A stretch of 64,000 nucleotides of DNA, from the NCBI RefSeq assembly GCF_044324785.1, contig NZ_CP172127.1, one strand, 5' to 3'. Positions 1 through 6,981 of the stretch are shown in pieces (position 1 is the first letter of the stretch; every line of letters begins with the position of its first letter). The translations under genes and the position numbers were made by a program. The notes beneath the pieces were generated by a model. The model did not search any database, had not been told where the DNA came from, and worked only from the letters and a program-made list of their open reading frames with translations. Origin of the DNA: Escherichia coli. Lineage in GTDB: Bacteria > Pseudomonadota > Gammaproteobacteria > Enterobacterales > Enterobacteriaceae.

Positions 1-198
1 TTTGATATGCCTTGCTTTAGTATCCGTCAATACTGCCATACGCTAATTCCTGTTACTCTGGTATGCCATTCAGTATGCCATTAGTCTCTCACTTCACTAA
101 GAATACATTAGATAACATCGGACAGAAAAAATTGTAATGCATTGTTTATAATAAGGTTATATAACACTCCCGGATTAAGTCAGATTTATTTCAGGCGG

Positions 199-254
199 TC
201 CCCCTCACCGCCATATTTAAAGAAAAGCTCGTACGAAAGTACGGGCTTTTTTTT
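199..254 (+). repeat. Direct repeat copy A: degenerate tRNA-Ser 3' end (tCCCCCTCACCGCCA) followed by hairpin (agctcgtacgaaagtacgggct) and T8 run
   Basis: Read directly; near-identical module recurs at 374-433. Only 5 C in the C-run versus 7 in copy B. Confidence 0.6.
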
Positions 255-373
255 CGCATATTGCACTCCAGGGGGGATGAGAAGCCCCGACCGGGGTTCG
301 ACAACTGGCGCAGCCAGTTGGACAGACCACGAACGCAGTGAGTGGGCTGCCCGCAGGGCGAGCGAAGCGAGTC

Positions 374-433
374 TATCCCCCCCTCACCGCCATATTTAAA
401 GAAGAGCTCGTACGAAAGTACGAGTTTTTTTTC
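374..433 (+). repeat. Direct repeat copy B: exact 3'-terminal ~18 nt of tRNA-Ser(GGA) (ATCCCCCCCTCACCGCCA) followed by rho-independent terminator hairpin and T8 run
   Basis: 3' acceptor/CCA end matches the serW/serX tRNA-Ser end as I remember it; upstream 70 nt do not resemble a tRNA body (no GGTGAGG 5' acceptor strand, no T-loop). Confidence 0.6.
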
Positions 434-610
434 GCATTTTATCTGCCTGTACGGCAGTGAACTCAAATACTACACGTTTAGTCCGTTATTAATAAAGCAA
501 AGCCATCTCATTTTCCTGCTACCACCCTTTTTTATCCTTACCTTCCCGCAGCACTAATTATCAACAACTTACCATCATCATCAAAAAAAGGGTCTGAACC
601 TCCTCCACCC

Positions 611-651
611 CATAAACAAAAAGTCCGTAACCTCTTTCGAGATTACGGACT
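611..651 (-). terminator. Rho-independent terminator of clpA
   Basis: Hairpin agtccgtaa...ttacggact just past the clpA stop, followed on the minus strand by a T-rich tract. Confidence 0.6.
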
Positions 652-675
652 TCACCAACCTACCTAACAATTAGA

Positions 676-2952
676 TTAATGCGCTGCTTCCGGTTTGTGC
701 TTTTGCGCACTCTGGAATCCGTAAGTCAGCTCATTTTTCTCTTTATCCAGCGCGACGGTGACCTGACCGCCGTCCACCAGCGAACCAAACAGCAGTTCGT
801 TGGCGAGCGGTTTTTTCAGGTTGTCCTGGATGACACGCGCCATCGGACGTGCGCCCATTGCCCGATCGTAACCTTTCTCGGCCAGCCAGTTACGCGCTTC
901 CTGGCTCACTTCCAGAGAAACACCTTTCTGATCCAGCTGAACCTGCAACTCGACGATGAATTTATCCACCACCTGATGGATCACGTCGGTTGACAGATGA
1001 TCGAACCAAATAATGTTGTCGAGACGGTTACGAAACTCCGGCGTAAAGATCTTCTTGATCTCTTCCATCGCATCGGTGCTGTTATCCTGGTGGATAAGAC
1101 CAATCGATTTACGCTCAGTTTCCCGTACCCCGGCGTTGGTGGTCATCACCAATACCACGTTACGGAAGTCCGCTTTGCGTCCGTTGTTATCGGTCAGCGT
1201 ACCGTTGTCCATCACCTGCAACAGAATATTGAACACGTCCGGGTGCGCTTTCTCGATTTCGTCCAGCAGCAGCACCGCATGTGGATGCTTGATGACCGCA
1301 TCAGTCAGCAAACCGCCCTGATCAAAACCAACGTATCCCGGAGGCGCACCAATCAGACGGCTGACGGTATGGCGTTCCATATACTCGGACATATCAAAGC
1401 GCAGAAGCTCAATGCCCAAAGCTTTCGAAAGCTGTACCGTCACCTCTGTTTTCCCGACCCCGGTAGGGCCGGCAAACAGGAACGAACCGACCGGTTTATG
1501 TTCGTGACCTAAACCTGCACGCGCCATCTTAATGGCTTCAGTCAGCGCCTCAATGGCTTTATCCTGACCGAAGACCAGCATTTTCAGGCGATCGCCGAGG
1601 TTTTTCAGGGTATCGCGGTCACTCTGAGAAACACTCTTCTCTGGAATGCGCGCAATACGGGCCACCACGGACTCAATATCCGCCACATTAACGGTTTTCT
1701 TGCGTTTGCTTACCGGCATCAGGCGTGCGCGAGCGCCCGCTTCGTCGATAACGTCAATGGCTTTATCCGGCAGATGACGATCGTTAATGTATTTCACCGC
1801 CAGCTCTACCGCTGCACGCACCGCTTTTGCGGTATAACGCACGTCGTGGTGCGCTTCATACTTCGGTTTCAGGCCATTGATGATTTGAACAGTTTCTTCG
1901 ATCGACGGTTCAGTAATATCAATTTTCTGGAAGCGACGCGCCAGAGCACGGTCTTTCTCGAAAATGTTGCTGAACTCCTGATAGGTTGTCGAACCAATTA
2001 CGCGAATTTTACCGCTGGAGAGCAACGGTTTGATTAGGTTAGCCGCATCGACCTGGCCACCAGACGCTGCACCCGCACCGATAATGGTGTGGATCTCATC
2101 AATAAACAGGATGCTGTTAGTGTCCTGCTCCAGCTGCTTGAGCAACGCTTTAAAACGTTTTTCAAAGTCGCCGCGATATTTTGTGCCCGCTAACAGAGAA
2201 CCGATATCGAGAGAGTAAATCGTACAGTCAGCCATCACTTCCGGCACATCGCCCTGAACAATTCGCCAGGCAAGACCTTCCGCAATCGCGGTTTTACCGA
2301 CACCAGATTCCCCCACCAGCAGCGGGTTGTTTTTACGGCGACGGCAGAGAACCTGAATAGCACGCTCCAGCTCCTTCTCACGACCAATCAGTGGGTCGAT
2401 TCCGCCCACACGCGCAAGCTGATTCAGGTTCGTCGTGAAATTCTCCATACGTTCCTCCCCACCAGCTTGTTCTTCGCTGTTTGGCTGGCTGCCAGGATCA
2501 GAAGACTGTGTCGGCTCGTCTTTACGCGTGCCATGAGAGATAAAGTTCACCACATCGAGACGGCTGACTTCATGTTTACGCAACAGATATGCCGCCTGCG
2601 ACTCCTGTTCGCTAAAGATAGCGACCAGAACGTTTGCACCGGTAACCTCATTGCGACCGGAGGACTGGACATGGAAGACCGCACGTTGCAGTACACGCTG
2701 AAAACTCAGCGTCGGCTGTGTGTCGCGCTCCTCTTCACTGGCAGGCAGAACGGGTGTGGTTTGTTCAATAAAGGCTTCCAGTTCCTGACGGAGCGCAACC
2801 AAATCCACAGAACACGCTTCCAGCGCCTCCCGGGCAGATGGGTTACTGAGCAGCGCCAGTAACAAGTGCTCGACGGTCATAAACTCATGACGGTGCTCGC
2901 GCGCTCTGGCGAAAGCCATATTTAAACTGAGTTCCAGTTCTTGATTGAGCAT
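676..2952 (-). CDS. clpA: ATP-dependent Clp protease ATP-binding subunit ClpA (758 aa)
   Basis: Two AAA+ modules with Walker A motifs GESGVGKT and GPTGVGKT; start [10 protein letters not shown] as in K-12 (ORF track extends 5 codons upstream). Confidence 0.96.
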
Positions 2953-2982
2953 AGGCACCTCCCCCAATTTTTATGCCTGCAT

Positions 2983-3303
2983 TCAGGCTTTTTCTAGCGT
3001 ACACAGCAATGGATGCTCATTCTCCCTCGCGTACTTGTTCACCATCGCCACTTTGGTTTCTGCAACCTCGGCGGTAAAGACTCCGCAAATGGCCTTCCCC
3101 TGGTAGTGAACAGCGAGCATCAATTGCGTTGCACGTTCTACATCATAAGAAAAGAATTTTTGTAACACGTCAATAACAAACTCCATCGGAGTGTAATCAT
3201 CATTGACTAATATCACTTTATACATAGATGGCGGTTTTAGCGCGTCGCGAACTTTTTCTTCCGCCAGTTGATCAAAGTCCAGCCAGTCGTTCGTTTTACC
3301 CAT
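2983..3303 (-). CDS. clpS: Clp adaptor protein ClpS (106 aa)
   Basis: 106-aa ORF immediately upstream of clpA in the same orientation; sequence [13 protein letters not shown]... Confidence 0.95.
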
Positions 3304-3625
3304 TGTCAGTTATCATCTTCGGTTACGGTTATCGGCAGAACGCCCTGCCGCTGACAAGAGCTTATTTGCCTGACCAATCTACTCCACATGATAGATAACT
3401 ATCATCTATCGTTGGCATCAGCGACATCTGTCACATTCCTGTCAATAGCGTTAACTGCTTCAAATTTTTGATTCATACCTGCCCCCTGGCCCCTGTCAAA
3501 TGCTTGACGGCTCGCCCTAATTCTCTAAATTGTATTTCTAGAGTTGGCGAGGTTTTGAACAGCCCCCTCTCTGACCCCGGTTTATTCCATCTTACTTGTA
3601 TAAGATTTGCGAAGGATGTCGAAGC

Positions 3626-3850
3626 ATGGAAAAGGGTACTGTTAAGTGGTTCAACAATGCCAAAGGGTTTGGTTTCATCTGCCCTGAAGGCGGCGGCGAA
3701 GATATTTTCGCTCATTATTCCACCATTCAGATGGATGGTTACAGAACGCTAAAAGCTGGACAATCCGTTCAGTTTGATGTCCACCAGGGGCCAAAAGGCA
3801 ATCACGCCAGTGTTATTGTGCCCGTCGAAGTAGAAGCAGCAGTCGCATAG
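3626..3850 (+). CDS. cspD: Cold-shock-domain protein CspD (74 aa)
   Basis: MEKGTVKWFNNAKGFGFI cold-shock motif; start set at the internal ATG that gives the 74-aa protein. Confidence 0.95.
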   Translation: MEKGTVKWFNNAKGFGFICPEGGGEDIFAHYSTIQMDGYRTLKAGQSVQFDVHQGPKGNHASVIVPVEVEAAVA

Positions 3851-3883
3851 CTCTTCTGTCTCATTGTGTACATCCTAAAGGCA

Positions 3884-3912
3884 AAATGCCAGCCCGATCG
3901 GCTGGCATTTTT
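3884..3912. terminator. Bidirectional terminator between convergent cspD and macB
   Basis: Perfect hairpin gccagcccgatcgggctggc flanked by A/T runs on both sides. Confidence 0.7.
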
Positions 3913-3922
3913 ATCTCAAAAA

Positions 3923-5869
3923 TTACTCTCGTGCCAGAGCATCTACTGGATCCAGTCGTGCCGCATTTCGTGCGGGTAACCAGCCAAATAAAATCCCGGT
4001 GACCGTCGAGCAGAGAAACGCCAGCAGCAGCGCCAACGGTGAAAAACCAATCTCCCAGCCGGGTAAGAAAAGCTGTAAGGTGAAAGCAATTAACAGTGAC
4101 AGTGTTATTCCCAACGCGCCACCGACCAGGCAAACCAGTACGGCTTCGATCAGAAACTGTTGCAAAACATCGCTTGCTCGCGCACCTACAGCCATGCGAA
4201 TGCCAATTTCCCGCGTCCGCTCGGTCACTGACACCAGCATAATATTCATTACACCAATACCGCCCACCACTAGCGAAATCACCGCCACCAGCGTCAGAAA
4301 CAGTTGTAAAGTACGTGTGGTCTTTTCAACGGTTTTCAAGACGCCGTCCATGTTCCAGGTAAAGAAATCCTTCTTACCGTGACGCAGTGAAAGTAAACGC
4401 GTGAGTTGCTGTTCCGCCTCGGCGCTGTCAAATCCTTCTTTCACCCTGACAGTAATGGAGTTCAGCCACGACTGGCCCATAACTCGCCCGGACATCGTGC
4501 TGTAAGGTAGCCAGACACGCAGCACTTTACTGCTACCAAACATCGACTGTTTTTCTTCCGCCACACCAATGACTCTGGCGGGCATATTGCCGACCAGAAT
4601 CACCTCGCCAACCACATCTGCTTTATGGGGGAAAAGCTGGCGACGAGTATTACTGTCGAGAACCACGACCTGCGCACGACCGTTCAGCTGCTCCTGATTA
4701 AAGGTGTTCCCTTCACTGAAGGTCATGCCATAGACATTAAAATAATCGCCGCTCACGCCATTGGCACTGGCAGCCACATCAACATTGTTATAACGCAGGC
4801 GCAGGTTTTGCGAGACGGCAGGTGTGGCTGAGGCGACCCACGGTTGTTTTTGGATGGCGATTAAGTCGTCGTACTTCAGCGCCTGCTGATATTGCGGATC
4901 GTCATCGCCAAAATCTTTCCCGGGATAGACATCAATAGTATTCGTACCAATAGAACGAATATCCGCCAGCACCATTTGTTTGGCGGCGTCACCCACCACG
5001 ACAATGGAAACCACCGACGCAATACCGATAATAATCCCCAGCATGGTCAGTAAAGTACGCATTTTATTCGCTGCCAGCGCCCGCCATGCCATCGTCAGCG
5101 CCTCGTTAAAACCACTGACAAACTGCCGCCAGCCAGACGCCGTGTTGACAGCAGGTTCCGTCCCGCCAGCAACATTCACTTTTTCAATGGCGGGAGGATT
5201 GCGCACAATTTCGCCGTCGCGAATTTCGATCACCCGCTCGGCCTGAGCAGCGACCTGCGGATCGTGGGTAACGATAATCACCGTATGCCCGCGATCGCGC
5301 AGCTGATGCAGGATCGCCATCACCTCTTCGCCAGAATGGCTGTCCAGTGCGCCGGTCGGTTCATCGGCAAGAATTACCTGACCGCCGTTCATCAATGCCC
5401 GCGCGATGCTGACGCGCTGTTGCTGACCACCCGAAAGCTGTGCCGGATAATACTCTGTACGGTCTTCCAGCCCCAGTCGTTGCAGCAACTCCTGGGCGCG
5501 AAGCAGCCGCTGTTTCCGCTCAAGACCAGCATAGACGGCGGGTACTTCAACGTTCTGCTCGGCGGTTAAATGCGAAAGCAAATGGTAACGCTGGAAAATA
5601 AAGCCGAAATGCTCGCGGCGTAGTTGCGCCAGCGCATCGGCGTCCAGCGTGGCAACATCCTGACCGGCGACGCGATAGGTGCCGCTGGTGGCCTTATCCA
5701 GACAGCCGAGAATATTCATCAGGGTCGATTTGCCGGAACCCGAAGCGCCAACAATCGCCACCATCTCACCCGCATAAATATCGAGGCTGATGCCCTTCAG
5801 CACCTCAACCTGCTCATCACCGGCAGGATAGCTGCGACGAATATCCTTTAATTCGAGCAAAGGCGTCAT
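3923..5869 (-). CDS. macB: Macrolide export ABC transporter MacB, fused ATPase-permease (648 aa)
   Basis: N-terminal Walker [10 protein letters not shown] and LSGGQQQRV signature, C-terminal permease; overlaps macA by 4 bp. Confidence 0.95.
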
Positions 5870-6981
5870 TGTGCAGCTCCTGGTTTGGCCTCACCAATCA
5901 CCACTTCATCGCCCGCTTCCAGCCCTTTGACAATCTCAACATCGGTATCGTTACGTGCGCCAATCGTCACTTCACGCTCGCGTGTTTCACCATTACGCAA
6001 CAATTTGACTTTATAACGATTATCGCCAACCGGATCGCCTAACGCCGACAGAGGGATCGTCAGCACATTTTTCACATCGGTGAGCTGAATATGCACTTGC
6101 GCAGTCATATCCAGCCGCAGCAAACCATTGGGGTTGGGGACTTCAAAACGGGCGTAATAGAAAATAGCGTCGTTAACCTTTTCCGGCGTCGGTAGTACAT
6201 CCTTGATTTGCCCCTCGTAGCGCGTCAGTGGATCGCCAAGTACCGTAAACCAGGCTTTTTGCCCCGGCTTCAGGTGGATTACATCCGCTTCAGAAACCTG
6301 CGCTTTTACCAGCATGGTGCTCATATCTGCCAGCGTCAGAATGTTCGGTGCTTGTTGTGCGGCAATCACCGTCTGGCCTTGCAGAGTGGTGATTTGCGTG
6401 ACTTCCCCGGCCATCGGAGCAACGATGCGGGTGTAATCGAGATTGGTTTTAGCCGTATCGAGAGAGGCCTGATTGCGCTTGATTTGCGCGTCAATGGTGC
6501 CAATTTGCGCCTGTTTCACAGCCATCTCCGTCGCGGCGGTATCGAGATCTTGCTGTGAAACCGCTTGCGTTTGTGCAAGACGTTGCTGACGGGAATACGT
6601 CACCCGCGCCAGTTTCAGCTCCGCTTCCGCCTGCTGCCGCTGCGCGCGTAGCTCCATCAGCGTTGCTTCGACCTCCTTGATCTGGTTTTCAGCCTGTTCA
6701 GGATCAATAACCCCTAAAAGCTGGTCTTTTTTAACTTTATCGCCAATCGCTACCGACAGCGTTTTCAACTGACCGCTGACCTGCGCGCCCACGTCAACCT
6801 TACGCAGCGCGTCCAGCTTTCCGGTCGCCAGCACGCTTTGCTGTAAATCACCGGGGCGCACAATCAGCGTCTGATAAGTCGGAACGGGTGCGTTAAGAAT
6901 TCTCCATAATGTAATCAGTCCGGCGATGACTATCACCAGCGCAATAACGTAACGCTTCTTCACGGTTTGCCGCTTTTTCAT
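5866..6981 (-). CDS. macA: Macrolide efflux membrane-fusion protein MacA (371 aa)
   Basis: Signal-anchor then coiled-coil/HlyD-like sequence; start at [14 protein letters not shown]. Confidence 0.94.

Follow-up and report, generated by a model that had tools for sequence, protein, structure and literature searches.

Arm-type integrase-binding sites as the probable identity of a 12-bp-period tandem repeat at the end of a serW island in Escherichia coli

The 64-kb stretch of Escherichia coli DNA analysed here, referred to as the window, is the clpA-clpS-cspD-macB region in reversed orientation relative to K-12. The original prediction had related a tandem repeat near the start of the window to the K-12 infA-serW intergenic region and had proposed an alignment with K-12 as a check. 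In K-12, which carries an intact serW at this place, the alignment begins only at the tRNA 3′ end, near position 375, and the entire segment 1-199 that holds the repeat is missing. Window 1-199 is the end of a ~41.6-kb island inserted in the 3′ end of serW, not K-12 backbone. The window opens on the minus strand with the first 13 codons (MAVLTDTKARHIK, 1-39) of int, a gene for a P4-like tyrosine integrase whose remainder lies outside the window start. This start codon beside the repeat had gone unrecognised. E. coli M159-1 is 100% identical to window 1-213, and its annotated 402-aa integrase starts at the match of window position 39. The window itself covers 13 int codons only; the integrase domains were read from M159-1. 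Pfam assigned Arm-DNA-bind_3 (residues 4-92, E 1.1e-14), Phage_int_M and Phage_integrase to this protein, which is 32% identical to P4 Int (E 4e-49). Close to int, M159-1 also carries a gene for an 82-aa Phage_AlpA protein, 2 kb away, and a gene for a DUF3987 protein.

The island end meets the chromosome at a 14-bp crossover core (200-213, plus strand), a direct repeat (attR) formed by the last 14 nt of serW and matching the intact serW 3′ end of both M159-1 and K-12. The same serW 3′ end, CCCCCTCACCGCCA, recurs at 379-392, and a serW terminator hairpin follows each copy. The predicted tRNA remnant near the repeat was thus borne out, and it consists of the last 14-18 nt of serW only; ARAGORN found no tRNA gene in window 1-6000. 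Overlapping the core is a putative core-type site, read from the sequence, in which GGCGGT and ACCGCC form an inverted repeat around the 7-nt spacer CCCCCTC (194-212, plus strand). Its counterparts are GCGGA-N7-TCCGC in an island at aspV and GGCGGA-N7-TCCGCC in distant homologues.

The first copy of the chromosomal serW terminator hairpin lies at 214-255 (plus strand; a direct repeat, D1, with a terminator-like site). An RtT-like unit then extends over 256-392 (plus strand), ends in the second serW 3′-end copy (18 nt, 375-392) and belongs to the chromosomal flank outside the island. The serW 3′ end and its terminator are accordingly duplicated 179 bp apart (200-262 and 379-440) with this unit between them. 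It was the only near-threshold Rfam match and lies outside the repeat, scoring 43.9 bits (E=4.9e-7), slightly short of its gathering score of 45. Matches to MicC, leader-peptide and CRISPR-DR4 families fell far under their gathering scores and were set aside as terminator or hairpin artefacts. The RtT-like unit carries an RtT sRNA annotation in related genomes and resembles the repeats downstream of tyrT. M159-1 has it at serW and two other strains have it at serX; K-12 lacks it, as does the serW locus of O157 FRIK2069, judged by the distance from core to clpA. A further polymorphism concerns the hairpin CTGCCTGTACGGCAGTGAAC at 441-462, present once in the window and twice in K-12 and M159-1, with a C-to-T change in one K-12 copy. 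The window is shorter here by 56 nt relative to K-12 and by 61 nt relative to M159-1, and the unique DNA between the hairpin copies differs between those two genomes. This small indel polymorphism gave rise to the weak, spurious CRISPR-DR4 match.

The repeat itself consists of two exact plus-strand copies of GTATGCCATT, at 61-70 (copy 1, nearer int) and 73-82 (copy 2), with a start-to-start distance of 12 bp. The pair sits upstream of int, 22-43 bp from the ATG, and about 130 bp separate it from the serW crossover core. The two identical copies and their 12-bp period had been described correctly, as had their AT-rich setting (64% A+T over window 1-199, against 49% for the whole window); the stated spacing of one helical turn holds roughly, 12 bp being slightly more. 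The pair is the only exact direct repeat of at least 10 bp at a spacing of 10-24 in the 64-kb window, where 100 dinucleotide shuffles yielded a mean of 0.95 such pairs (sd 1.05). Taken alone, the pair is no more than chance gives, and it is the context that makes it meaningful. A pair at up to one mismatch and exact 12-bp spacing within a 150-bp arm has a chance probability of ~3e-7, estimated as (31/4^10)^2 x 150 x 2.

The original prediction had also proposed a motif search. GTATGCCATT was not enriched elsewhere in the window (6 matches at up to one mismatch, 5.5 expected) or across 90 kb of M159-1, and enrichment was confined to the two island ends. Over these sequences, the missing recurrence at other promoters speaks against an operator of a genome-wide regulator. 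The original prediction had further held that absence from related genomes, or a lack of genome-wide enrichment, would refute a function. That criterion proved ill-posed, as the motif is absent where the island is absent and present in every island copy examined.

Among 5426 complete E. coli genomes, the int-side arm (window 1-199) was found in 1268 and the tRNA-side arm in 1355. The arms are located at serW, on the clpA side, or at serX, on the ycdU/dgcT side, and carriers include O157:H7, O104:H4, O111, UTI89 and Nissle 1917. The 32-bp context of the pair was covered over at least 80% of its length in 1262 of these genomes, with one to three pairs per carrying genome, and all inspected occurrences lie on island arms at serW, serX or aspV. 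A 32-nt query spanning the pair returned 156 records at 99% identity or above and 1303 records at 95-99%. The sole variation in the pair among E. coli carriers is the tenth base of copy 1, which is T here and C in most other genomes; the conserved unit is the 9-bp GTATGCCAT. Copy 1 reads GTATGCCATC in all 4 other serW/serX loci aligned, namely those of O157, Nissle and two further serX loci; the int-side arms of the O157 and Nissle loci are 92% identical to that of the window.

Conservation extends to other genera. In an alignment of seven int-side arms with a mean column identity of 67%, GTATGCCA is invariant. Beyond E. coli serW/serX, the loci that keep GTATGCCA encode integrases 71-76% identical and come from Edwardsiella, Budvicia (two loci), Limnobaculum and a metagenome-assembled genome, together with the aspV island. 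In the latter, from strain 23CRST035, Int is 74% identical and the flanks are largely different, and three motif copies lie upstream of int and two lie 45-70 bp past the intact aspV. The int-side arms of the aspV island, Edwardsiella and Budvicia carry a third, int-proximal degenerate copy (GTATGCCTTC, GTATGTCTTC, GTATACCACC, GTATGCCGCC; locus L006 1560-1600, columns 57-72 of alignment A3). The serW/serX lineage lacks this copy because of a 13-15-bp gap.

The other end of the island was examined in M159-1, where the island spans ~41.6 kb from the intact serW to the remnant and carries O-antigen-type glycosyltransferases, IS elements, Ag43 and a CbtA/YeeU toxin-antitoxin pair. A second pair, GTATGCCATC-gg-GTATGCCATC, lies 56 nt past the intact serW 3′ end, after a terminator hairpin supplied by the island (tRNA-side arm, NZ_CP058719 2736800-2736966). 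Its 12-bp period and its strand orientation are those of the int-side pair. Such tRNA-side pairs are kept in five serW/serX islands and in the aspV island. In CFSAN061769, both arms match at 100% on the same strand, ~41.6 kb apart. The islands bring their own hairpin and T-run terminator directly after the rebuilt tRNA 3′ end (L003 21966-21925, minus strand; L010 1818-1780, minus strand), and the chromosomal serW or aspV terminator is thereby displaced to the opposite island end. In M159-1 the integrase gene occupies the island end opposite the intact serW, divergent from the tRNA remnant. This layout, which is shared by the top enterobacterial homologues, is the reverse of the tRNA-then-int order of P4 and CP4-57, while the arm geometry relative to int is unchanged.

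We reconstructed attP by joining both island ends through the 14-bp core. In the resulting 481-bp sequence the int-side arm sites start at 61 and 73, the left half of the core inverted repeat (GGCGGT) lies at 194-199, the 7-nt spacer (CCCCCTC) at 200-206 and the right half (ACCGCC) at 207-212, and the tRNA-side arm sites start at 270 and 282. GTATGCCAT therefore flanks the core on both arms, and the GGCGGT/ACCGCC core is unrelated to it.

Arm repeats in the attP of phage P4 were reportedly described by Pierson and Kahn in 1987. The P4 record (NC_001609) lists 12-bp pairs named attP arm sequence repeat at 3942-3965 and 4151-4174, a core at 4078-4097 and an int ATG at 3926, and the reconstructed attP of the serW island (int-side pair 61-82, core 200-213, far-side pair 270-291) matches it in geometry. 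The int-side pair, the positional counterpart of the P4 pair at 3942-3965, lies 22-43 bp from the int ATG, compared with 16-39 bp in P4. The distance from the ATGCC of the first copy to the core start is about 137 bp in the island and about 134 bp in P4, and that from the core end to the far-side ATGCC is 58 and 55 nt, respectively. None of these distances differs by more than about 6 bp. In both elements all four main copies point the same way, and both combine a tRNA 3′-end core with homologous integrases that have an arm-binding domain. The motifs differ, with ATGCCCCCAA in P4 and GTATGCCAT in the island having only ATGCC in common. Additional copies occur in P4, of which one overlies the ATG in inverted orientation and another is located within int. 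Its leuX core is oriented as int, whereas the serW core is opposite to int.

If the motif belongs to the integrase, it should change as the integrase diverges. Among 79 loci encoding Int homologues from diverse bacteria, 25 had an exact 9-mer recurring with a 12-bp period in the 110 bp preceding int, compared with 0-5 loci for each other period from 8 to 24. Over all periods, one locus (at 15 bp) was obtained with a control segment inside the int gene and none with shuffled upstream regions. Matches of at least 8/9 at the 12-bp period, counted from the per-locus list, occur in about two-thirds of the 79 loci. The motif ATGGCATAC, read on the int-sense strand, is confined to the close clade, and where Int identity is 56% or lower it turns G-rich, as in TGTGGGGCT, GGGGGTAAC and GGCGGTAAC. 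Both arms of K-12 CP4-57 carry 12-bp pairs: TAGGCCCA occurs twice upstream of intA, and the distal end has TAGGACCA/TGGGACCA. The motif is thus kept with close integrases and changed with diverged ones. It tracks the integrase, as expected of the enzyme's own arm sites. K-12 intF (CP4-6), a divergent arrangement tested by Panis et al., was also considered; it belongs to another integrase subfamily, has no comparable repeats and was uninformative.

A scan of viral contigs found the exact pair at 14 loci, among them one that is a serW/serX tRNA-side arm (L098) and one upstream of a 40%-identical Int (L097); the scan was not useful for covariation. Another of these loci, on a low-G+C phage contig (L104 7940-8290; IMG/VR 3300010283_000065), shows a putative attP flanked on either side by GTATGCCA pairs with a 12-bp period. 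These adjoin the 3′ end of a tyrosine integrase gene, which contains one more motif copy and for which tblastn detected no similarity to the serW-island Int. Here an almost identical arm motif seems to have come into use by convergence.

Each arm also carries a second conserved element. The box ATCGGACA (117-124, plus strand), possibly a site for an accessory factor or excisionase, lies 34 nt beyond copy 2. The consensus AT(C/T)GGAC(A) occurs 33-34 nt after the last GTATGCCAT copy in 7/7 int-side arms and 2/2 tRNA-side arms examined (window 117-124; L003 21855-21848, minus strand; L006, L010, L011-L014 and L018), and the DNA between is not conserved. Each arm is thus a composite module of two GTATGCCAT sites, 34 non-conserved nt and the box, kept across genera, and exactly 209 bp separate corresponding positions of the int-side module and its tRNA-side counterpart in the reconstructed attP. 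No box at this fixed 34-nt offset was seen in P4. The box is only a mildly new observation.

In phage lambda, the N-terminal domain of the integrase binds arm sites distinct from the core, tandem arm sites lie about one turn apart, and bridging between arm and core builds the intasome. The GTATGCCAT(T) copies are very probably the corresponding int-side arm-type Int binding sites of a P4-type attP, belonging to the island in the serW 3′ end. The Int of the island would then act as a heterobivalent protein, with the catalytic and core-binding domains working at the GGCGGT-CCCCCTC-ACCGCC core (194-212) and the N-terminal Arm DNA-binding domain docking on the GTATGCCAT copies. There would be two such sites per arm, the other arm adjoining the intact serW ~41.6 kb away. 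The excised circle would present four same-orientation arm sites around the core, one for each subunit of an Int tetramer, and Int bridging arms and core would form the intasome for integration and excision. The sequences show the anatomy, the copies on both arms, their conservation, the change of the motif with Int, the P4-like geometry and the domains of the integrase, whereas Int binding, this stoichiometry, a 7-bp overlap and autorepression are inferred. Such an arrangement follows the known P4/lambda paradigm and is conceptually nothing new. Lambda itself differs in having five sites on its P and P′ arms (2 + 3) at ~10-11 bp spacing, compared with 2 + 2 at 12 bp in the serW island, and lambda int is transcribed towards attP, whereas the serW-island attP lies upstream of int.

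The original prediction had offered a dimeric regulator site or a recombination remnant. The tandem copies do suit cooperative protein binding, but the likely binder is the integrase of the island rather than a generic regulator. The link to recombination beside a tRNA remnant also stands, but the repeat looks like part of an intact, working attachment site. Several points count against the arm-site explanation. The exact pair by itself is statistically unremarkable in the window, the island has an AlpA-type excisionase gene and tandem direct repeats are bound by excisionases too, and the tRNA fragment runs against the direction of int, unlike in P4 and CP4-57, where both point the same way. 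Inspection of 83-199 by eye gave no convincing match to the IHF consensus.

Int bound upstream of the int ATG may also repress int transcription. The position of the pair, so close upstream of the start codon, makes such autorepression plausible, and we consider it about evenly balanced. A consensus scan revealed no sigma-70 promoter between 39 and 200. The best candidate, TTAGTG-17-CATACT, is weak, matching 6/12 positions, which leaves this part of the explanation weakly grounded. In P4, the only promoter-like match is TTGAAA-18-CATAAT, whose -10 hexamer spans the junction of the two arm repeats; CATACT is the serW-island equivalent of that hexamer. Where the int promoter is overlapped by att arms, integrases have been reported to repress their own gene, as for KplE1 IntS, P4 Int and other tRNA-linked integrases (PMC2951348) and for PAI I-536 IntI (PMC7286903). 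Such autoregulation has also been predicted for divergent tRNA/int arrangements, the layout seen in the serW island (PMC2951348). KplE1 differs from the island in that its integrase belongs to another subfamily and its arm sites share a TAAA motif.

Other readings of the pairs must be weighed against arm-type Int sites. In lambda and KplE1, the sites of the excisionase characteristically lie on one arm only. It is quite improbable that the pairs are instead sites for an AlpA/Vis-type excisionase of the island, which would bend the arm for excision and repress int. The Phage_AlpA protein encoded near int in M159-1 could supply such a factor, directionality factors are described as typically binding direct repeats about one helical turn apart (PMC7498355), and both KplE1 TorI and P4 Vis lower int expression (PMC2951348). 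However, the motif occurs in equal pairs on both arms and is not confined to one arm between arm sites and core, the pairs match by position what is annotated as attP arm repeats in P4, and the separate box ATCGGACA is the likelier place for an accessory protein to bind.

We see only a slight chance that the pair is an operator for a host or island transcription factor that controls int alone and has no role in recombination. Its location just upstream of the int ATG and its tandem copies at roughly helical-turn spacing would fit such an operator, but a like pair lies at the far end, beside the tRNA and the 3′ end of a convergent DUF4942 gene, where there is no promoter. The lack of enrichment elsewhere and the P4-like geometry relative to the core speak against it as well. 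That the repeat is a functionless chance duplication, a slippage product or a recombination scar agrees with the shuffled expectation of about one pair per 64 kb, yet this has a vanishing probability once other loci are compared. The motif is invariant across genera while the flanks diverge, both arms carry it in two island lineages, the 12-bp period is specific over the 79 homologous loci, and the estimate for a near-exact pair within one arm is very low. On these comparative sequence data, chance is effectively refuted.

The island belongs to the serW/serX family that comprises the SRL PAI of Shigella, OI-43/OI-48 of EDL933, SpLE1 of Sakai and the serX island of Nissle. The SRL PAI, OI-43/OI-48 and SpLE1 share its 14-bp direct repeat (TGGCGGTGAGGGGG), its target tRNAs and a P4-family integrase, whereas the cargo of M159-1 (glycosyltransferases, Ag43, CbtA/YeeU) differs from theirs. 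The 14-bp repeat has been reported for OI-43/OI-48 and the SRL PAI, and the OI-43/48 integrase is reported to be 99% identical to that of the SRL PAI (PMC3064760). Site-specific excision of OI-43/OI-48 between the 14-bp repeats was measured experimentally (PMC3064760), and we therefore take the attachment module to be active. No description of the arm sites of this family was found in the accessible papers, and a literature search for the motif string matched, among the papers listed, only unrelated primer sequences.

Herein, our findings change the annotation of this region, as the window begins inside a mobile island and not in infA-serW backbone, and the repeat becomes part of the probable integration and excision machinery of that island. 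The family is medically relevant, including the SRL PAI with multidrug resistance, OI-43/48 and SpLE1 with tellurite resistance, Iha and urease, and the Nissle serX island. Targets for mutagenesis (e.g., GTATGCCAT to GTATCGGAT) by which islands may be stabilised or mobilised can be taken from the four-site map, from the inverted repeat of the core and from the ATCGGACA box. A 12-bp-period pair upstream of Arm-DNA-bind_3 integrases may also serve as a simple signature for automatic annotation of attP arms and island ends. A more tentative and rather unlikely proposal is that on both arms the AT(C/T)GGAC(A) box is bound by an excisionase of the AlpA type, or by a second surface of Int, which would give a symmetric intasome in this Enterobacterales integrase clade. 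If true, this intasome would be unlike those of lambda, KplE1 and P4, in which the sites for directionality factors are found on one arm, and would provide a new handle on how the direction of excision is set in islands of the SRL PAI and OI-43/48 type.
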